From the NCBI RefSeq assembly GCF_041381155.1, contig NC_091134.1:61246902-61310901 (forward strand): DNA of 64,000 nucleotides. Reading direction: 5' to 3'. Within the stretch, counting starts at the first letter, position 1. The number at the start of each line of letters is the position of its first letter. Shown here piece by piece: positions 36,422 through 51,825 of this stretch. The translations under genes and the position numbers were made by a program. The notes below the pieces were generated by a model that was not told the DNA's origin, searched no databases, and saw nothing but the letters and a program-made list of their open reading frames with translations. The stretch comes from Argopecten irradians. Taxonomy: Eukaryota.

Positions 36422-39275
36422 TTAGGTAGCAGTGAACTCTGTGTGTTGAGACGGTTCAACAGTTACTTCGTTACTCGATTCCTGGTAATCTACGTATTCA
36501 GACGGTTCAACAGTTCCCTCTTCCCTTGATCTCTTGAAATCTGTTTGCTGATCTGATTCACCATCTCCCTCGTCCCAAAATCTCTTGCGGTTTATGTGCT
36601 GCGAAGGTTCATCAGCTTTATATAAACAAAACGTATATTTCAAAACAATGGCACATTTATGTTTCCAAAATAAACTATTATTCGCGCCATTAATATTGGA
36701 CAAACACGAATAAAGCTCTCTTTGTCAAATCACGTATGCTTTAGTTTTCTGAGACAATGCTTTAAGTACATCAGCTTTTGCAAAAATCAGATATTTGAAA
36801 TTATCACGTTTTTAAAGATTGTGAAATTACGAGAGAAATGTTGTATGTACATGTTAAGAAATAAAGTAGCATTATACACTGTACATGTACATGTATATTG
36901 TTTTAGACATGTATGCGATCAAGGAAAGGCATCGTATACGACCCAAGTTACACGTTGTTACACGTTTTGATATGATATTCAGTTTAGTCTACATACTAAA
37001 TAAATGATAGATACTTAGCCAAATTGAAATATTTTTAGGAGACAAAATGGTCTAAACCAAACATAGCTTGGCAAAAGATAATTTTAATTTCCTGCTCCTA
37101 ACTCTTGTCTTCGAAACACCCAATAATATAATAGACACTGTAATAAAATAAAACTATGAGATAGACACCTTAAACATCACAATAGATAAAAGTATATTGT
37201 GTAAACTGCTTTGAAAAAAAATCATTTGTCCATACTTTAACACTCAACATGACAAATTAATTTCATTAAATGTCATTAATAGACCTATTGCACTTGTTAC
37301 CTGTAAATGTGTGTTCTGTATACTGTATGGCTTCCTGAGACCTCCCAACGAGGACTAAACACTCGCCTGTGATGTGGTATATCGGAAGGTCACTAGTCAA
37401 CCTCAGCTTGCTAGAATTCTGCTCGATAAACACCTTCAAATCGTTTGCTACCTCTGACGCTCTGTTGAGATTTTCATATGCAAGAAAACAATGCAGCTTG
37501 ATCACGTGGGTGTAGAACAGCGGATTGATGAACAGGACACTTTGGGATTTTTGAAGGACTTTTTGAACAGCTTTCGGTAAGAATTCTGTAAAAACGGGCA
37601 GACAGGCGATGTCTAGGGCTATGAATCGCTTTAGGGTTTCCTCAAAGGTGCTTGTTTTGGAGCGATACATTTCATGATAATCCTCGTCGTTTGGATCTCT
37701 GTCTCTGTTATGGAATGTGTAATGGATGATTGTCCTGTTGTAGCGGCTGATGACATCTTCAGCAATGTCATGTGCCTCTTTTACCCTTCCTTGGTTCAGA
37801 TGAAATGTAGCCAGTACTACTAGACCACAGCAGAATGTTAAATCAGCTTGCCGTTCTAGTATTATTTGAAGTTCATTGTTATCACCTTCCATGTCTCTCC
37901 TTTGAGATTTGTAAAATTTGTGTATGGCATCAATGGTGTTGACTTCTTTCTGCAACATCAAACATATATTCTTTTGTAAATGTATATCCAAAGCTTTTTG
38001 TATTTTTTCTATGCTATGTTGCAGACATTTAGAAAATTTGTCAGAATTAGAAAAGAAATTCAGAATGATATGGCGAACAAAGCACAATGCGCTGAATGAA
38101 ACATGGTGAACATAAACGTCGTTTTCGGCGACTTCATTCATTCGTTTTTTAATTATTTCTCTCCATTTCGTGGAATTCCGATTTTCAAAGGCCTTTAGTT
38201 CTGCCAGAAGTCCGTCTAAATCCAAAGCCAGTTTTGTGTCCATCATATTGTTTGAAGGAATGAAATAGTTTTGTATTTCCTTTCTTTGTACACAGATTAT
38301 TATCATATTAAGAAACTTGTCCAGGCATTGGTAGATTTTCTGGCCTCCACAAGTCCTCTGGCGACTTCTCTACCATCCAAAGCATGACTGTTTTAATGAA
38401 ATAAGACGGGAAAGCGTCTGGAAACTTCGAACTTATCTTCGAGTGGAAGAAGATCTTCACGGTATCGACACAGGCATATTGGGTACTATTGAATGACCAT
38501 ATTAGTTCTCTTCCATCTTGTTGAACGATATTCTCCATTCTATTTCCTTTTGTAAGGAATCGGCATGTCCTACGGGGACTAGACAGCACCCTAATAAAGA
38601 GGATTTGTCGATAGTACTTCTACCGGGCCAGTTGTACTCTCGATGCCTAGTAAGCCAATCTTTGGCGGTTTTAGGCCAATCACATGTCAACGCAAACAGT
38701 GTGTCGATGTTGAAAATTCTTTCCATTCCTCCATACTGGAATGTTATGCAAGGTCCATGAGGCTCAAGCTGTTTGAACATACCATGACGAGGAAAATATA
38801 ATCCCTTCGCTATTTGCGTTTTCCAGTAATTTGACGTCTTTACACTCGATACGTATTCTGTGCCTTCAAAACAAAGTGATCGAACATCAATTTCACACTG
38901 GTTTCTTCTATTGACATCAAATAGTTTAACTTTGGTATAGCCAGGGTGAGTTCCATGTGTATCCATCACAACTATTGCATCGATTTCTTTCCTCGCTGAA
39001 CCTTGTGCACTCCCATGATTTTTCCTGTTTTGTTGCAGGTATTTGGCCTGTTCAATCTCAGTTGCTACCTTAATAGGTTGAGATTCATATATAAGATCCG
39101 AGTCGCAATCCAATCCTTGAATAAATTCAGCTCTGCTACCAGATACAAACATAGGTTTTCTGGTTATTTCTTGTATTGTGAAGTTTACCAATTTGTAGCG
39201 TTCGATCATCTTTGCTACTCGTTCCTTGAATAACTTCACTATCTTTAAACTAAGATCATCCATGTTGGCAATCAC
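36422..39275 (-). pseudogene. cGAS-like receptor (cGLR / Mab-21-type nucleotidyltransferase) paralog A, disrupted by two frameshifts. Exon 1 is complement(37300..39275) and the putative 3' exon is complement(36422..36540).
   Basis: It is co-linear with intact paralogs B and C but split into three reading frames. ORF 38502..39275 ends ...WRISFNKMEEN*. ORF 38308..38589 continues in another frame with ...ELIWSFNSTQYACVDTVKIFF...PSYFIKTVMLWMVEKSPEDLWRPENL. ORF 37266..38306 covers the C-terminal part. There is an apparent 1-nt deletion in an A-run near 38520 and a second shift near 38306-38320 (ENLPMPGQVS* versus expected ENLYQCLD...). The GS...DCDSD and VVMD catalytic motifs are retained. The phase-1 donor ACAG|GTAACA lies at 37300/37299. 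The putative last exon begins at acceptor CAAACAG| at 36541/36540 and encodes DFKRSREEGTVEPSEY...TEFTAT*. Confidence 0.6.
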
Positions 39276-40955
39276 TTATTCCTCTGGAACCGCTACCTAC
39301 ATTTTATATTGGAATACAACTATAATATTTGACCAATACTACCTACAGGATTACGGATTTAAAAAGGAATACGAAAGCAATAAAACTGTATATTTTCCTG
39401 TCTGAACATGCAGTAAAATATGACTACAACTGTTACAGTTCATATTTGCATAAGACTTTTAAAAACAACTCTATATTGGTTTATGGTTTAAGTTACTGTT
39501 AAAGCGACTCCTACAATGATGACACACAAACAAAATCATTCGGTAAATATAAACCATCAATACGAAAAGGAATTTTTAAAACTTCATGTTTTCTATATAC
39601 AATCAAAGAAATATGTTTGATAATATCGAATACTTGGTTAAAGGAAATGTCTCGTTCATCTCATACTTGATTTCTATAATTGTCTCGAACTTGTTCGCTT
39701 TAAAAGACAATCAAATGTAACGCGATACATGACGTAGGCATGCAGGGCAACACCTCGCTCCTGTAATGTTTAAATTGCATTGATTGTAAAATCTCGTAAC
39801 ATGAAGTATATTTACCCTTGGGAATGCACTGCATAACCGTGTCGGTTATATAACATAACCAAAGGGAATAAACAAAGATCCTTTTTTGGGCCAGCTTTTC
39901 TCTCCGTCTGTAGACTCATATAAATATATCATCATTTGAATAGTATTGAGATATCCGTTGACTTTCTAGATCAATTCGACTGAGATCTATGCTTTAGTAC
40001 TCCATGAATTGTTTTTTTAGAATCATTCTCAACAGACGAGGGTTAATTTTCAATTCATTTATTGATTTTCACCAGCATATAATATAATACAAAGTTGTAA
40101 GTAAATGGTCTATGTTTCTATATTTACGTATCATTAATTGATAGGGCAATTGCCTTACATCCTGGCTCTATTTTATAACAGAACCACCAATGGATGTAGA
40201 AAGTCAAACATAAAGTATTCCTTAAATGACTGTGGTTAGTATTCTCCTATTCGGCTAGATTAATGAGACTGCCGTTCAGTGTCCGTGGGGGTATGGTGTA
40301 GTGAGATATGTAAATTTTACACAATTACAAGACATGCCGTAGACTCCCAAAACACCATACAAAACAATCACTGCACACAACACTTCGTATTCACAGAAGA
40401 TCGCCTGAAATGACTAACCGTTAATTTGATTAAGACCGTCCTGAAAATAACCCTATTAATGAGACGAAACATAATGTGTATTCTGCATAGATTGGTTACA
40501 ACATTTATACATTCTATTCGATGCTATATTGGTTGATTTATGAACATTATAAAACATTGTTTCAGAGGGGAAAAAATATAAAAAAATATTTATCTATATA
40601 TACTTTACTACCACATTAATTTACATTAAACTGAAAAATAGAAGAACAAACAAATGAATGATGTTGTACTTCATGTCATGATTGAACAAATCGTAGAGGG
40701 CGGCCAAATTAAGAATATTACTTTTTCTCTTCCTAACTAGCATTCTCTTTTCTAACGTCTTTTTTGACACCACGTGCACCCCATTTGTGGTCTGGAGGAC
40801 GTTAAGCTTTATCATCCAAATAGCCAATCATATCATAACACAATTCTAGAGCCGAAACGTAAGTAATGAAATCCCTTGACGACTGTACACGGTAAGGCTG
40901 TTTTACGAATTTGGCGGTTTCATAGGCCAATATATATATTGATTAAATCTAATAC

Positions 40956-40960
<5 letters not shown>

Positions 40961-40986
<26 letters not shown>

Positions 40987-40990
40987 GACA
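40961..40990. repeat. Poly(A) tract, ~29-30 nt
   Basis: A homopolymer a-run. It may be a retroposon 3' tail, but no element body was recognised. Confidence 0.6.
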
Positions 40991-41864
40991 TAAACCTTTA
41001 TCGCTCCCAGCATCTCCTTGATGTCGCCTATAAACCACTTAATAATATCTGTAACACCCTGTCACACAATATTAACATAATTACATAAAATGATGATTGG
41101 CCTTTAAGATACAATGTAGCATGATGATGAAACAATGTCCAAACATGAGACAATTCATCCTCGATACTCCAGGGGTTACTATCACTGACGTTATATCTAC
41201 CCCTGGAATATCTCATAATAAAACTTGAGGCAACAGAAGACACCGATAATTTGATCCTTTCATCTCCATCACGTCAACGATACACTGTGATTGACTGTGA
41301 TGCTTTAAGCTTGGCGTCGCTCTCTCTCTGTAATCTTCAAAGAAAGTCTCTGCAGTCCTGTGAGTGGTCAGTGATTTCTCCTGAACTGATTCATTTCAGT
41401 GTCACTGGTGAAGCCTATAAAGATAATTGGTTTATTGTTTGGGCATTGCTGTTTCTATTTATCATGAAAATAAAAATAACATATTTTAAAACATTGTGTA
41501 AAATGCGTTATTTCTACACAGCTTAGCTATAGAATAATATGAATTACAAAATCATCCAAAATGTCGCAAATAACTAGCTATATGGTATAAATCGACTTCT
41601 AATACATATATATCACATATTTTGCATTAGAATACGTACTTCGCATCAATAAATTTTAACAATTTTTTTAAGTTTTATTAATAAAATCTTAAAATTTTGA
41701 AAATATGAAGTGTTAAAGATAACCAATGCTAATGAAACCAGTTTGCAAACGATGGAATATTGAGTCAGTATTTAGCCCAAGATCGTTTTGCTGATTCAGA
41801 ATTAATCATGTTGCCATGTTGTCATATCAAAACATCCTCTTTCAATAAGTTACACATTGATGTC

Positions 41865-44809
41865 TTAGTAATGTAAACTCACGTCAGTCCGGCTGACCTT
41901 TGCAGTATTTTCCGAGACGGCATTACTACTCGAATTATCCTCGTTCCTTGATCTCTTGAGGCCTGTTTTTTGAAAAGGTCAAACAGTGTATTAGCGTTAT
42001 TTTTGCAATTAGTATCCAAAATTCCAATATATTGAAATATAATTCTGCACCATAATGTTTTAATGGTATAACTGACATAACATCTTTTTCTAAAACAATC
42101 CTTACCTGTCATTTTCTTGCATTAATTGTAATACGTGTAAAGTGGTTTTCTTCAAATTAAATAACTAGATCAAATGCCTTTAGAGCTAAACAAAATCAGT
42201 CGATTATACTTCCAGATTTAATTATGCAGTTACGTCTAACTCTAATAATACTCTTTTGTCACAAAAATGACCTGTATTACAAATCAGCGCACATGTTAGC
42301 AATCGAATGTAATCTAATATGACTAGAATTGTACTAATATTCAGTTCGTAAACAGGAAAACAAATATTACGGAAACGATAGGAATTAAGTGTGTTTTTGA
42401 ATCATGTTTTAAAATATCCGTAACAACAAAGTTCCACATTCAAATTTTATATCTAATTTTATAAGATGTTTATACTGTGATATGTTATAAACAACACTTT
42501 ATATCGCATGTATTTTGCTATATACTAGTTGTTGCTTAGGGAGATAACTCATATAGGCTATGCCAGTTGTTCGATCCTTTTCAAATGTTTTTGAAATAAA
42601 ATATGTTGAAATTGCAACGTTTTGTTTGAGAATTCCTGTGTGAAAAAGCAGTGGGTTTTCTGATTATCAAGTAGCATGTTAGCGTATAGCCAGTTTATAA
42701 TGCTAAAAATTTAACGATTTTCCTTTTAAACGAAAAAAAATATCCTATCAAAATTTCGCCATCAGATTAAAACAATACATTAATACTACCGATTTCTTAG
42801 CTTTCAACAAATCAAACTTGGCTAGCATGTAAATGTCCGGCATTGAAAATACCAGCCTGAAAAATCTTACCTTTAACGGTATAGTCTGTATACTCTTCCG
42901 CCTCACGAAGCATTCCGACAAGCTTAAGGCACTCTGCAGTGATGTGATATATCGAAATGTCTGAAGACTGGTTAAGTTTGGGGGAATTTTCTTCAACAAA
43001 TGCCCTCAGATGGTTGGCTACCTCTGATGCTTTGTTGAGATTTTCAGACGCAAGACAGCAATGCAGCTTGATCACGTTGGTGTAAAACAAAGGATTGATG
43101 AACAAGACATTTTTGGATTTCCTCATGACTTTTTGAACAGCTTCCGGGTAAAATGGTATCAGAACGGGAAGGCATATGACATCAAATGCTATGAATCGCT
43201 TTAGCGTTTGTTGAAAGGTGCTTGTTTTAGAGCGATGCGTTTCATGATAATCCTCGTCCTTTGGATTCCTGTCCCTGTTATAGAATGTATAATGGATGAT
43301 TGTCTCATCGTAGCGGCTGATGACATCTTCAGCAATGTCTTGTGCCTCTTTTACCCTTCCTTGGTTCAAATGAAATGAAGCTAACATCAACCGACCACTG
43401 CAAAATGTTAAATCTGCTTGTTGTTCAAGTAATAATTCAAGAGCGTCCTCATCACCGATTTTCTGTTGGAGGTTGTGAATAGCAGAGATTGTTTCGAATT
43501 CTTTTTGTAAAATCACAAAAATATCCTTTGATAAATCTTGATCTATAGCTCGTTGAATCTTTTCGCGGATGTGTCGCAGACATCTTGAAAATCTGTCAGC
43601 CTCAGAGGTAGAAAGGAGATTCATGCTGATATGACGAGCAAGACACAGCCCATTGGACAAAACATGATGAACGTTTACGTCATTTTCAGCGACATCATTA
43701 GTTCTAACTTGCAAAACTTTATCCCATTTTGCGGGTTCAAGTGTTTTGAATGCCATCAGTTCCAAAAGGAGTCCGTCTAAATCAAATGTCAATCTTGTGT
43801 CCATCATGTTGTTTGAAGGAATGAAATAATTTCTCACTTCTTTTCTTTCTAAACAAGTTATAATCCTATTCAGAAGCTCATCAAGGCATTGGTAAAGATT
43901 CTCAGGTTTCCACAATTCAACTGGCGATTCTTCTATCATCCAAAACATGGTTGTCTTTATAAAGTACGATGGGAACGCGTCTGGAAACTTAGGACTTATC
44001 CTCATGTTGAAGAAGATCTTCATGATATCAATGCATGCATATTGAGCAGTATTGAATGACAACACAAGTTGTCTCTCCATTTTGTTGAAAGATATTCTCC
44101 ATTCCAGTTCCTTCTCGGATGAATACGCATGCCCTACAGGGACCAAACTACCTCCTAATGTGGCTGCCATTGCGAGTGTTTTCTCATCAGGCCAGTTGAA
44201 ATTTCGGTGCCTCGTGCGCCATTCGTTGGCAAATTCAGGCCAGTCACAGTGTAAAGAAAAAAGAGTATCTATGTCGTTAACACGTTCTAATCCCCCATGC
44301 TGAAATGTTATACATGGTCCATGAGGCTGGAACTGTTGGGACATTCCTTGGCTTGGGAATATTAAACCATTGGTTAATTGCTTTTTCCAATATTGAGACG
44401 TCTTCATACTTGATATGTAGTCTGTGCCATCAACACAGAGGGATCGAACATCAATCATCATTTTGGATTGGTATCGATTGACATCAAACAATTTAACTTT
44501 GGTGTAACCAGAATGTGTGCCATATGTATCCATTACAACTACTGCGTCAGTGGATGTTGGTCTAACTTGACGTTGATTAGTTAGATAGCTTGCTTGTTCT
44601 ACGCCAGTTGTTGCCTTAATAGTTTGCGATTCATATATAAGATCGGTGTCCGATTCAAGTCCATGAATGAATTCGGCTTTGCTTCCGGATAAAAACAGAG
44701 GCAGTTGGGCTATGACCTGGATTGTATAGTTAATAATTTCGTACCGTTTAGCCATCTTTGGTAATTTGTCCTCAAATAAGTGAACAACTTTCGAACATTG
44801 ATCATCCAT
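41865..44809 (-). CDS. cGAS-like receptor (cGLR / Mab-21-type nucleotidyltransferase) paralog B. complement(join(41865..41962,42871..44809)), ~678 aa.
   Basis: This is the 665-aa ORF 42812..44809. N-terminal sequence MDDQCSKVVHLFEDKLPKMAKRYEII...LFLSGSKAEFIHGLESDTDLIYESQ carries the GS and [DE]h[DE]h motifs. The third catalytic acid is in DAVVVMDTYG. The C-terminal part is a cGAS/Mab21-type helical domain: WRISFNKMERQLVLSFNTAQYACIDIMKIFF...PSYFIKTTMFWMIEESPVELW...NYFIPSNNMMD. Compare human cGAS SWRLSFS, SSYHVKTAFFHV and LENYFIPEFNLF. The ORF runs through a phase-1 donor AAAG|GTAAGA at 42871/42870. The proposed 3' exon 41962..41865 has acceptor AAAAACAG| and encodes GLKRSRNEDNSSSNAVSENTAKVSRTDVSLHY*, homologous to paralog A's tail. 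A possible micro-exon (...ATGACAG|GTAAGG at ~42108) is not resolved. Confidence 0.75.
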
Positions 44810-46868
44810 TATGGTTGTGGAATAAACTGGATCCCGCTACCTTGTACGATCTACGTTTTACACTGCACAATGAACCCTCCAAATTCTTTCCTACTTGTTA
44901 TAGTGCTACCCTACCTGATCGCTTATTTGATCATATACATGTACATGTACAAGGATACGCCTCCAGAAGTCATAAGGACTTAAATTGGTGTTTTAATTAC
45001 ATGATTACATGATTACACCGGACTGTAATCTTATTGATATACACTATACACCTACGTTTTGTGTGAACACCTGCCTAATTCTGAGCGCAGACATAATCAA
45101 TCAGGCGTTAAATTCATAATTAGTACTTGCGATCATACTATAAACCAGATTTGAAGGACAGATCGATTATGTGACACCAAAAATACATTAAATGTTGCGT
45201 CAGTCAGTTTATTACGATGAAAGAAAGCGGTTGCAACATTTATAAAAACATAATACGAACTATGTGACTGATACCTGATACCTTCCATAGACGTCAATTG
45301 TTAGTTGAAACCAGCTCATTCTAACGCGTTTTGTATAGATGAATAGATACTCCATTGGTTTGGATATTTGATCTACAATTTCTAAAATTAGTTTCAGAGT
45401 GGCCCTTGTGATTTGCTGAGATTTAACTTCTCAGTGGGTTACCGGATTTTCAAGCATGACTTTTAGGGGTCTAACTTTTGTGTTGTCCCTAGACGAAAGT
45501 CTGCTGTTATTTTTAAGTCATTTTCTCCCAGACTGGTAGATATATGCCTAATGTCTAACTGTTTGTTATGATTTCCGTCTCCAGTCTTTTTGGGGACATT
45601 GGATTCATAGAATCGTACATGGATCTGTCAAGTGTAATAGGTCTTGCTCTTCTTGCTGAACAGTTATTTATGTGCGATTGTGTCCCAGAAGGTAATACAT
45701 GTATAAATGTGGACCTGCTAGTGTTGAATTCTAGGTAAACTCATTCCTTTTAATACAACGAAGTTCCGTCTGGAAGTAATTGAATACGTTGTTTCACGGT
45801 AAACCTTTAAAAAGAATAATATATTGATCTAATAAAGATCCTTATCTTCCATTGTTCACAAAGAAGGTCTTAATCTATCTACGGTCTCTTTCTGTCTACT
45901 ATCATTCATATTTATCGTAAAATATTTTAATACGTTTCAACTTTAGGGAAATGGAACAACAGGTTGTCAGTACCGGTTCGAGGTGTGCTGCTGGATATCT
46001 TTGGTAGTTCATCAGGTGAAATAGCTCTATAAACATCATTAGGAGATAAAGCATCATCTGTGTTACGTTAAGTATCCATATCTTATGTATGTATTTGTAA
46101 AATATTGAAAATATAAAATAAATGCATGGAAACTAAATGTCATTGCGTCCAAAAAAATAAACGTGTTCCAGGTCCACTACCTTTCCGAAATAAAAAAAAT
46201 CAAAAAAAAAATCCTAAAAACAAAAATATTCTACAAAGCAATGTTTACATCGATAACGTAAGATGAATTTACAACGCTAAACAAATGCAATATTGAATAT
46301 TCCCTGTGTAACCTATGTTTTGCCGTCAGGCGCACATATAGTCAACTAACGTGCGGTAATCAGAACAACGGCGGGAAACATAACATTTCATTTATATTTT
46401 ATTTTATTTGAGTCATAAATATAGTATTAACTTTTGCGGGAAGGTTGTGGCCCGGTCCTTTAATGAAACGTAAGCATAGATTGAGATTCCAACCACTGTT
46501 CAGTCAATGTTGGAACTATTTCATAAAGGGTGTGTCAATATCACAATGAGTCACGGCACGAACCAAGCTTTTTCTTCAGTACGATATCTTCAGCATACTT
46601 TATTTATGACTTTTACTGCAAATGTGATGCTGAAAAATAATAAGAATTCTATATGTATCCCTACACATAGGGACAAAATTATTTTATCATACCGAACAAA
46701 ATTTAAATGAATTCATGAATATGTTATTTTTCTGGTTTAAGAACTCATAAAGATGTTACCCAATAACGTTGCTAAGTTCGTCGGATGGCAAAATATAAGC
46801 AACAACGTTGCCATTGTTGGTTGACGTTGCAGACGACGTCCACTTCCGTTCACGCACAGAGCTTCCAA

Positions 46869-46930
46869 GGGGTTATCTCCCTTGGGTTATTTCCCTGAGG
46901 GGTTATTTCCCTGGGTTATTTCCCTCGCCT
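46869..46930. repeat. Minisatellite (gggttatttccct-like) x4
   Basis: ggggttatctcccttgggttatttccctgaggggttatttccctgggttatttccct. Confidence 0.7.
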
Positions 46931-47731
46931 CCCAATTCAGGAGAGATATCTCACTTATTCAATGTCATGTGATCAAGTTTAATCCAATCAGAACATTGAA
47001 AGTGAAGTTAATAAATGCATCATTCGGATTCTATATGAATATAAGACAAAACAGGTACACGGTGATCGTGATCTTGAATGAATAGAATTATATTAGTAGT
47101 AATGCATACACTCTATAGATGTACATCAATTGATTTCAACAGTATGGTAGATACCTCCTAAACAATGTTTTGATTGTTTCAACTTTAATCAATTTGTATT
47201 GGTCAAAACATTATCAAAAGGATGTCAGTGTTATATGATATTTCTACTTTTGAAATCGTCACCATTGTCTCCATGTTTTCATAGTGTCATTGCAGACGGA
47301 CTCTTACATCAGTATTTCACAAAAAATCCGTATCAAGTATCAACTTAGATCTGTGATTATGACATTAAAGAATCATATTTTGACGGAAGGTTCATAACTT
47401 TGATAACTATATAAGACAAATAATGTTTTTTATCGTTTTCTATTGATGCAAAAATACCATATGTATGCATCTGCGCACATATGAAGAATAACGCAACATT
47501 TATATGAAATTGAAAGGGTGACAATTAAATTTATTGTCGAAAATTTCATCCTGTAAATACATGAAATAAAGATTGTCAATGCAAAGTAGTTGCACCCATA
47601 AACTATTTATAACTACAATCACTAAACTGCACATATACAACAAAATATCAAACTTATACTAGCCTTAGCGAGGTTAACAATTTATCACCGACAAAAACAT
47701 GAAATATATCAAGATTTATTTCTGGATTCTA

Positions 47732-49672
47732 TTATTCTACACACAGAGCCGCTATATCCTCCAGCTTGTTATTCTGATAATGTTTTGCAGATGCCGCGAG
47801 TTGTTGTGCTAGCTCTGCAGCCTCCTTATTGTATTTCTCAGCCTTAAAACAATGAAATTTGATAAGTTTGCCGTAAAATAGTGGGTTCATAAAAAGTACA
47901 GATTCCATCTTCTCTAACATAGTTTGAATTGATTTAGGATAAAGTGCATGTAGCATGGGCAGGCAGACAACATCAAACACAACAAACTTTTCAAGTGTTT
48001 CTTCTAAACTTGGTCTTGGGTACTTAATATCGAAATCGCAATCTTTTGGTTTTTTGTCCCTGTTGTGGAATGTATAATGAACAACGTTGTCGCCATAGCA
48101 TGGCACAAACATATCCACTTCTCTCCGTGCCTCAGGATATTTTTCCTGGGACAAATACCACGTTGCTAAGTGAAGACACCTGAAGCCTAAATGCACATTT
48201 TTCTGTCCTGTCATCCAAGCCACGAATTTATCATTGGTTTCTCTTTCCATTTCAGCAGATGTTAATATACCATTGATGTCCGCACGCAGGTCACTGCTTG
48301 ATCTAGTTTCAAATTGAATGTGTTCATGAAGCTTTTGAATAACGCCAATTTCAACTTGAAGAAGTGCCCATAACTCCTTCGATAGTTCTTGCTCAATAGC
48401 ATATTCCATGCTGCTGTTTATGTGTTCTATACATCGAGTGAATTCCTTGTTTTCTGTCGTAGAAAGCAGATTGATTATATAGTGTCGTACAGTGGACAAG
48501 GCGTTGATTTGGACATGGTAAAAATAAATATCATTTTCGTTTTTTTCATCTATCCTTGCTTTTAAAACAGGTTTCCATTTGTCTTGGCCTAACGTTTGGA
48601 ATTTCCTCAGCTCCACTAAAAGTGCATCAAGTCTTCCAGCGGGCTTCGTATCCATCATGTTGTTTGATGGAATAAAGTAATTCTTTAGTTCCTTCTTCTC
48701 AACGCAGGAGATAATACGATCAAGCAATCCTTGCAGGCAACTGCACAGGTTTTGTGGTTTCCATATATTTTGATCTGATTCTTCAACCATCCAAAACATA
48801 ATCGTTTTTATGAAATATGACGGAAACAAGTCGGGGAATTTCGGGCTGATTTTCACGTGAAAGAATATCTTCATAAAATCCACACAGGCAAATTGCGTGC
48901 CATTAAAAGACCAAACAAGTTGTCGTTCGGGCTTGTTAAAAGAAATTCGCCACTCTAGATGTCTTTGAGGAGAGCATGTATGTCCGATAGGCACAAGATG
49001 ACATCCTAGTGATTTTAATTTATTTTGAAGTTTCCCGTCTGGCCAGCCATGCTGTCTCGGCCTCGTAAACCAGTCGTTTGCCTGTTCGGGCCAGAGACAC
49101 GGCAAGGTAAAAACAGAGTCAATGTCTGTGTCGACTCGATTCTCGGTCCCTGTGTACTTGAATGTAATACATGGTCCATGCTGATACAGGCCATTCTTCA
49201 TCCCGTGAGAAGGAAACAGGTCCCGCCTAGACAGTCTGTCCTTCCAGAATATAGACACTAGATTGTTGGACAGGTAACCATCTATACATAAAGATGGGAC
49301 GTCTACCTCTTCATAGGCCTGATCACGCCGAATATCGAAAAGTTTTATTTTTGTATAGCCCTGATGTACCCCTTCCGAGTCAAACACCACCACGGCGTCG
49401 TAATCCTGCGTTAGTATACCTAGCTCTCTCGTCTGTTCCAGGTTTTGTACGACCTTTATTGTTTGGGACTCGTACATAATGTCAGTGTCCGAATTGAGTC
49501 CGTGGATACATTCAGCCTGACTGCCTAGATACATCATCGGCACACACCCAATACACTGCATCGTAAAATCGCGTAGTTTTACACGTGGGATCATTTTCGT
49601 TACCTTTTCCATAAAAATTGATACTGATTTCGTGCATAGCCTTTCCAAGTCGTTCTCGTCATCGTCAGCCAT
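47732..49672 (-). CDS. cGAS-like receptor (cGLR / Mab-21-type nucleotidyltransferase) paralog C, ~646 aa from the second ATG.
   Basis: This is the 672-aa ORF 47732..49750. By homology to A and B the start is the internal MADDDENDLERLCTKSVSIFMEKVTKMIPRV at 49672. Motifs present: ...MYLGSQAECIHGLNSDTDIMYESQ (GS and DTD), DAVVVFDSEG, WRISFNKPERQLVWSFNGTQFACVDFMKIFFHVKISPKFPDLFPSYFIKTIMFWMVEESDQNIWKPQNL and LKNYFIPSNNMMD. It ends in-frame at ...EDIAALCVE* (stop 47732-47734). Unlike A and B there is no obvious phase-1 donor, so the 3' end may differ. Confidence 0.8.
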   Translation of the reverse strand: MADDDENDLERLCTKSVSIFMEKVTKMIPRVKLRDFTMQCIGCVPMMYLGSQAECIHGLNSDTDIMYESQTIKVVQNLEQTRELGILTQDYDAVVVFDSEGVHQGYTKIKLFDIRRDQAYEEVDVPSLCIDGYLSNNLVSIFWKDRLSRRDLFPSHGMKNGLYQHGPCITFKYTGTENRVDTDIDSVFTLPCLWPEQANDWFTRPRQHGWPDGKLQNKLKSLGCHLVPIGHTCSPQRHLEWRISFNKPERQLVWSFNGTQFACVDFMKIFFHVKISPKFPDLFPSYFIKTIMFWMVEESDQNIWKPQNLCSCLQGLLDRIISCVEKKELKNYFIPSNNMMDTKPAGRLDALLVELRKFQTLGQDKWKPVLKARIDEKNENDIYFYHVQINALSTVRHYIINLLSTTENKEFTRCIEHINSSMEYAIEQELSKELWALLQVEIGVIQKLHEHIQFETRSSSDLRADINGILTSAEMERETNDKFVAWMTGQKNVHLGFRCLHLATWYLSQEKYPEARREVDMFVPCYGDNVVHYTFHNRDKKPKDCDFDIKYPRPSLEETLEKFVVFDVVCLPMLHALYPKSIQTMLEKMESVLFMNPLFYGKLIKFHCFKAEKYNKEAAELAQQLAASAKHYQNNKLEDIAALCVE

Positions 49673-51825
49673 GTTGTCTGTGTGACTCACACATATGTTA
49701 AAACATTTGTGTAAGTACACATATATGTAGCATGGATGCCCGCAGGGCATTTAAACGACTGTTATTAGACTTGCATGAGTCCGCACAATCATTTCTTCAT
49801 TCACATTTCCTTATCGATTGTTAATCTTATCTGGTTTTTACCACCTCAGATGAAATAATATGGTGTACACACGTCCAATTGTCCTTTATTAACCTATACC
49901 AAGAGACGACGTATTACAGGTACACTGTAACTTATCAGATTATTTGTTTTTATATCATATAGGGATTGGACAGTGCATATTAATAAAAATAAGAGCGTGC
50001 TGAAAGATATGTTTTGGGTTTAAGCATAAATATTTTCAATGCTATATATGGATAATAAAAGAGCTCACCTTCCCAGCTGTTCAGTAGACAGGCAATCCTA
50101 TACGAATAAGATATCCACGAAATTGAAAAATTACGTGGTGGGAGTCTTTCACTCGTTAATTTTAGTTTCCAATTGATTGACTGCCTAAAGTGAATAATAA
50201 ATCAGTTTTCTAAAATGTTTACATTCACATGATTACACAAAAGACGTGGTATGATATTTTATGTCTAAATCACAAATTTATATTCAAACATACTGTCACT
50301 GCTCCTTGCTGTGCATATTGCTACCGTTTCAACAATGGTCGGTAATAGCACTTGAATCAAATAAAAACAAAACCACTTTTCATCTGATTAATCTGATTAA
50401 TGAATCTAGACTTAACTGAAAAGATAACTTTTACTCCATCCGAGAATCTGCTTCTTTTCTTCATTCCCATCTCGAGAGAAATGTCCGTACAAAGCAATTT
50501 TAGCTCATATCTGCTATTAAATTAAAATTATTAGTTTGTAACTGTGTCGTCTAACGTTTTCGTGTTTCCCCGTTTTGTTTCATTATAAATCATTCATATC
50601 TATACTTGATCATATCTAATACAAAGATACAGGAATTAAGAAAACAACAACAATATTTTAAAGCAAGGCTATATGATATCACAATTTTATCAGAGTGTGC
50701 AAAATAGGCAAAACTACATTAGTAACATCAAATTGAAGATTTTCAAAATGAGTAGCACAATGTATATGTTTGTAATACATAAATGATCCTTGGTTCTATT
50801 CTATTCGAGGGTGAGAACAGAGCGGATAGGACCAGACGGAACGATATCGACACGGTACATGCTGCATTCATTCCCAACACGCCATGAATAAAAATCAAAG
50901 TATGTCTGTATTCAAAATGACACTGCCAAATCAAGAATGATATTCTTCAACAACCGTTTTCTAGACAGCAGCTTGCTTGAAATAGATTTTTATAAAGAAT
51001 TTGTTGTGTAAATTAAATGTTGATTTGACATTACGGGGTCCATCAGGGAGCTGTTTTGACTCTGCTTATTATCTAATATTAAAATTGACAATAAATTTAA
51101 TCATTGATTAAGGTTTTTCCTACCATGGCAATAACATGTCAATGAATGTTATTGCTTGTCTTCTTGGTTTCATCTGTTATTTTTATTACTTTATATTGCG
51201 CCAATAGCCAGCGTTATAATGTATTTTAATGAGTTTTGGGGCAGAGTGCAACTGCGTAAGCAGAAATCAACTACATCGATGTCCGAGATATGCAGGTTGG
51301 TAAAGAAGACTGCAGCAAAGCTTATTGCTCGATATAATTATCTCACCGGTACATCCTATGTTGTCATTTGGTAGAATAGGTCAGACTTGCTTACTATTTC
51401 CCTTGCTGTGCATTTTGCTGCTGTTTTATCAACAATTGTTGACGATAGGGCTTGAGTGAATTAAAAACCAAACCGCTGTTCATTTGGTTATACAACAATG
51501 TATTGCTGAATCTGGACTTGATTGAGAAGACAACTTTTTACTCCATCAGAGAATCTGCTTTTTTTCTTCATTCCCCTCTCGAGAAATGTCCCTATCCAAA
51601 TCAATCTTAGCTCATATCTGCTATTAAATTAAAATGGTTAGTTTGTATATGTGTCGTTTAACGTTTTCGTGTTTTCCCGTTTTGTTTCTTAATAAATCAT
51701 TCATATCTATACTTGATCATATATAATACAAAATGTTCTATGTCGATATGAAATATTGATGCAGAAGGGATAGCATAAAATGGAGTAACTTACAAGGCGT
51801 CTATTTGCTCTACTGATGGTAACGA

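Follow-up and report, generated by a model that had tools for sequence, protein, structure and literature searches.

Animal cGAS-like receptors (cGLRs) were surveyed by Li et al. 2023 (PMC9980059), who set out the criteria for recognizing them and listed 3,020 cGLRs. Scallop genomes were reported to contain 61-73 cGLRs and 3-5 STINGs each, and TPR modules were noted on some cGLRs (Li et al. 2023, PMC9980059). The nucleic-acid-sensing cGLRs have a pI above 8.5, and acidic cGLRs have been proposed as sensors of other ligands (Li et al. 2023, PMC9980059). Orphan receptors make up most of the animal cGLRs, and a large number of cGLRs seem inactive in vitro, probably for want of a known ligand (Li et al. 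2023). Oyster proteins from the wider clade that holds the genes described here were purified in that screen and fall outside the 15 proteins labelled active, without their inactivity being stated in the table; they are 27% identical to gene 2 of the present cluster in the core. In a literature search, no paper on the pectinid subfamily was found.

The window, a stretch of 64,000 nucleotides of bay scallop (Argopecten irradians) DNA, contains three homologous, co-oriented genes on the minus strand inside 36422-49750 (Table 1). A tblastn search of the window returned exactly three copies, in agreement with the initial annotation. This tandem trio probably belongs to the bivalve-expanded cGLR (Mab-21) family and encodes two-domain cytosolic proteins, in which a nucleotidyltransferase core with a complete active site is joined to a TPR-like domain. 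The identity of the paralogs is not a uniform 50-60%, as had been proposed: genes 1 and 2 share 61-63%, and gene 3 shares 44-48% with either of them. The proposed protein sizes of about 650-680 aa fit gene 2 (678 aa), with gene 3 at 646 aa, and are exceeded by gene 1, which would encode 719 aa if repaired. All of the motifs quoted in the initial annotation (GSKAEFIHGLESDTD, GSRAEFIQGLDCDSD, GSQAECIHGLNSDTD, EWRISFNK, PSYFIKT and NYFIPSNNMMD) are present, but their order was reversed between two genes, in that GSKAE... belongs to gene 2 (41.9-44.8 kb) and GSRAE... to gene 1 (36.4-39.3 kb). The N-terminal extension is nearly absent, as previously described, with the spine helix running from residue 4 and GS at residues 42-43.

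Table 1. Features of the three cGLR-type genes, with positions in the window
Feature	Position	Strand	Basis or remark
Gene 1, coding exon 1, disrupted	37301..39263	-	Three ORF pieces in two frames; DNA alignment to gene 2
Gene 1, coding exon 2, acidic tail of ~64 aa (ADEPSQHINRKRF...FKRSREEG...) and stop	36422..36615	-	Predicted from homology
Gene 2, coding exon 1, aa 1-646 and first base of codon 647	42871..44809	-	GT donor AAAG/GTAAGA at end
Gene 2, coding exon 2, 32-aa tail GLKRSRNEDNSSSNAVSENTAKVSRTDVSLHY and stop	41865..41962	-	908-nt intron, ...AACAG acceptor
Gene 2, codons G42-S43 ... D54-T55-D56, activation loop and metal-binding dyad	44642..44686	-	Conservation; 8gjy alignment
Gene 2, codon D181, third catalytic acid, motif N-D-I-D181-T-L-F	44267..44269	-	Conservation; Sp-cGLR1 alignment
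Gene 2, C-terminal domain, aa 340-646, TPR-like helical solenoid	42872..43792	-	
Gene 3, single-exon CDS, 646 aa and stop	47732..49672	-	ORF

We infer the splice junction of gene 2 from homology, and the tail obtained in this way is similar to the one annotated in P. maximus XP_033741760.1 (KRSRDED...KVGRTN). The start of gene 3, placed at 49750 in the initial annotation, was corrected to the second Met at 49672, from which the protein is identical to XP_069142075.1 (P0007) of Argopecten irradians. The orthologue of gene 3 is P. maximus LOC117328341, with 68-69% identity. In a synteny comparison, the P. maximus flanks had neither tRNA genes nor translated similarity beyond the two cGLR genes. 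Genes 1 and 2 had no matching protein in a collection of 5.8 billion sequences, and since the search of that collection with gene 2 gave nothing above 62% identity, both genes seem to be unannotated. Genes 2 and 3 look functional.

The cGAS-type core that was originally attributed to these proteins covers only residues 1 to ~340, and a C-terminal domain of ~310 aa was overlooked. In gene 3, the cGLR-type nucleotidyltransferase core spans aa 1 to ~345 and is likewise followed by the TPR-like domain. The Pfam models PF03281 (Mab-21) and PF20266 (Mab-21_C) reached their curated cut-offs in genes 2 and 3. The Mab-21 score of gene 2 was 24.1 bits, exactly on the curated cut-off, and gene 3 scored 33.6 bits with Mab-21 and 64.4 bits with Mab-21_C. 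In gene 1, Mab-21 scored 31.9 bits on the first ORF piece and Mab-21_C 24.5 bits on the second. With an E value of 2.4e-37, the family profile matched Sp-cGLR1 (8gjy), an active sensor of dsRNA, over residues 4-370. The Pfam matches and the 8gjy alignment over chain residues 4-370 indicate homology across the nucleotidyltransferase core and the C-terminal helix bundle. An AF2 model (pLDDT 92.7, pTM 0.89) gave a predicted fold homologous to known cGLR/CD-NTase enzymes.

Conservation was compared among 51 relatives spanning Pectinida, Unionida, Mytilida and Pteriida. VVVMD or VVVFD had been named as the site of the third catalytic acid; the column is D in 21/51 relatives, gene 1 reads IVVMD, and this candidate was ruled out by its conservation and by alignment to solved cGLRs. 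The homologous third acid is D181 of gene 2 (IDTLF), which is D in 50 and E in 1 of the 51 relatives. In the activation loop and dyad of gene 2, G is conserved in 47/51, S in 49/51 and each D in 49/51, and GS is kept together with all three acids in 47/51. Equivalents of G42-S43, D54-T-D56 and D181 are present in genes 1 and 3. The residues of gene 2 are at positions homologous to the catalytic ones, aligning with GS / DEfD / VDL of active Sp-cGLR1 (8gjy). The columns aligned to WRLSFSHTEK, LMKYL and SYHVKT of mouse cGAS (R238, S240, E245, K264, S281, Y282 and K285), which we take to be the lining of the cGAS nucleotide pocket, are 96-100% conserved. The description of the trio as catalytically competent synthases is upheld as far as a complete predicted site is concerned, with the proper third acid elsewhere than cited, and does not hold for the one gene of the three that is disrupted as assembled.

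The literal cGLR pattern, h[QT]GS-X8-20-[DE]h[DE]h-X50-90-h[DE]h (Li et al. 2023), is not matched by the scallop proteins, which have S or L before GS, T or S between the Asp pair and a spacer of 122 aa versus 50-90. That the printed pattern is not taken literally is seen from Sp-cGLR1, a solved and active enzyme, which reads HKGS in the alignment. A relaxed pattern matched 10/10 sequences tested, genes 2 and 3 among them.

The scallop proteins retain the active-site acids, unlike the noncatalytic Mab-21 proteins of the MAB21L1/2 type. In MAB21L1/2, as far as is known, these active-site residues are lost. Li et al. 2023 (PMC9980059) describe MAB21L1/2 only as being without a predicted functional active site. 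A nonenzymatic Mab-21 scaffold would signal through protein-protein contacts and make no nucleotide messenger, for example if the TPR-like domain activated a TBK1/IKK-epsilon-type kinase. We regard such a role as unlikely, as the GS loop, the three metal-binding acids and the pocket-aligned residues are kept in 92-100% of the 51 relatives, from deeply diverged bivalve orders, and this retention is hard to explain without catalysis. An active nucleotidyltransferase that is not a STING-directed cyclic-dinucleotide synthase, producing OAS-like linear oligonucleotides or nucleotidylating another substrate, with an immune function or not, appears more improbable still.

Gene 1 was originally taken as intact. 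As assembled, it carries two frameshifting deletions relative to gene 2, -1 nt after 38511 (A3 to A2) and -2 nt after 38334 (T3 to T1), and a premature stop in the entry frame at 38502, and a full-length protein is impossible. The frame shift covers ~59 codons, including PSYFIKT. An intron or a programmed frameshift was rejected as the cause, as the shifted 177-nt segment still codes for the SFN..PSYFIKT core, which is conserved and in register with gene 2. The reconstructed protein has 719 aa and no further stop, and its exon junction FT/ADEPSQ matches FTAGEPFQ of P. maximus. Gene 1 is either a very recent pseudogene or a carrier of assembly errors. That the frameshifts are assembly errors rather than mutations, and that all three genes are functional, is a possibility to which we give somewhat less than an even chance. 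Both deletions shorten homopolymers (AAA to AA and TTT to T) and jointly remove exactly 3 nt, which is in line with such errors, as is the lack of any other stop in 719 codons. The rate of gene 1 is not accelerated either (Tajima test, 86 versus 87 unique changes, chi2 0.01), and its dN/dS versus gene 2 is 0.25 overall, 0.20 in the enzyme domain and 0.27 in the C-terminal domain, indicating purifying selection between the two genes. However, polished chromosome-level assemblies do not usually contain a 2-nt error in a homopolymer of 3 nt, slippage in homopolymers is also the most frequent type of genuine indel, and a protein resembling gene 1 was not found in public protein sets.

The enzyme domains are acidic, with a pI of 6.1 in gene 2 and 6.0 in gene 3. 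A zinc thumb was not detected, in that EWRISFNK leads to the next helix without an insertion and the family is gapped opposite the cGAS zinc-thumb segment. Acidic enzyme domains (pI ~6) without a zinc thumb suggest that the proteins of genes 2 and 3 probably sense a ligand other than nucleic acid.

The fold of the C-terminal domain is a TPR-like solenoid of helical hairpins. The domain has 24 invariant columns and, in gene 2, a conserved strand/loop insert, VHYTFxNRDxxPKD. None of the Pfam TPR models reached its cut-off in this domain (best scores 12-18 bits versus cut-offs of 23-30). Its distribution was judged by a sequence profile, which reached only 35 clusters, and the domain was found almost only together with Mab-21.

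In the mechanism that we propose, the resting protein would be inactive. It would recognize a partner protein or a ligand, the latter probably other than a nucleic acid, and probably do so via or together with the TPR-like domain, and recognition would reposition the GS activation loop. At the D54/D56/D181 metal site, two NTPs would then be joined into a nucleotide second messenger, either cyclic or linear, which may act on one of several scallop STING proteins. A more specific and speculative version, which we hold to be doubtful, is that a non-nucleic-acid ligand has a dedicated sensor in the C-terminal domain, which carries the invariant HYxFxNRxxxPxD insert, and that binding of this ligand gates the acidic cGLR core. 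A protein or peptide of a pathogen or of host damage would be a possible ligand of such a sensor. If true, this would be the first class of animal cGLRs to combine a fused receptor domain with a defined trigger other than nucleic acid.

Because 61-73 cGLRs per scallop genome have already been reported (PMC9980059), the cluster is less unusual than the first reading implied. Its genes are ordinary members of the known large bivalve cGLR expansion, and cGLR-TPR fusions have been noted before. The cluster alone adds three genes to a family of dozens per scallop genome, two of which seem absent from public protein sets. The pectinid/unionid subfamily has an intact predicted catalytic site, an acidic enzyme domain and a conserved TPR-like fusion found almost nowhere else, and these three properties make it a compact candidate in the search for a cGLR ligand other than nucleic acid. 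Studies of disease resistance in this farmed scallop could also take the cluster as a candidate locus.

Compared with the animal cGLRs Cv-cGLR1 (8gjw), Sp-cGLR1 (8gjy) and those of Drosophila and Tribolium, the scallop core is only 16-21% identical. The scallop enzyme domain is acidic (pI ~6), whereas the pI of nucleic-acid sensors exceeds 8.5. The scallop proteins also add the ~310-aa TPR-like domain at the C terminus and leave the literal active-site pattern unmatched. Long cGLR-like proteins of bivalves include Mytilus edulis XP_071143037.1, named "cyclic GMP-AMP synthase-like receptor 2" by NCBI, and the oyster entries 99-103 of Table S3 of Li et al. Both they and the scallop proteins have 600-700 aa and a long helical C-terminal part, with 27-33% identity in the core and the motifs GS..SDxD, HGPC, WP..A..W..R, VPIG, EWRISF, SYxxKT and FIPxNN in common. 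BLASTP detected no similarity between the scallop C-terminal domain and XP_071143037.1, and the pectinid and unionid subfamily has invariant C-terminal domain motifs of its own.

Human cGAS and the scallop proteins have the same fold and catalytic triad, and the WRLSF / SYHVKT / YFIP motifs are common to both. In contrast to human cGAS, the scallop proteins are without the zinc thumb, the disordered basic N terminus and the basic surface, and the C-terminal domain is extra. The scallop genes are not cGAS orthologues. Human MB21D2, for which we know of no product, keeps the same active-site residues as the scallop family. It is without a TPR-like domain and is a single conserved vertebrate gene, whereas the scallop genes form a fast-evolving tandem family. 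For the C-terminal domain, the resemblance to PlcR/Rap RRNPP receptors, kinesin light chain and TONSOKU TPR is at the level of the fold only, with 6-12% identity, and unlike these TPR domains, the scallop domain holds a conserved non-TPR strand/loop insert.

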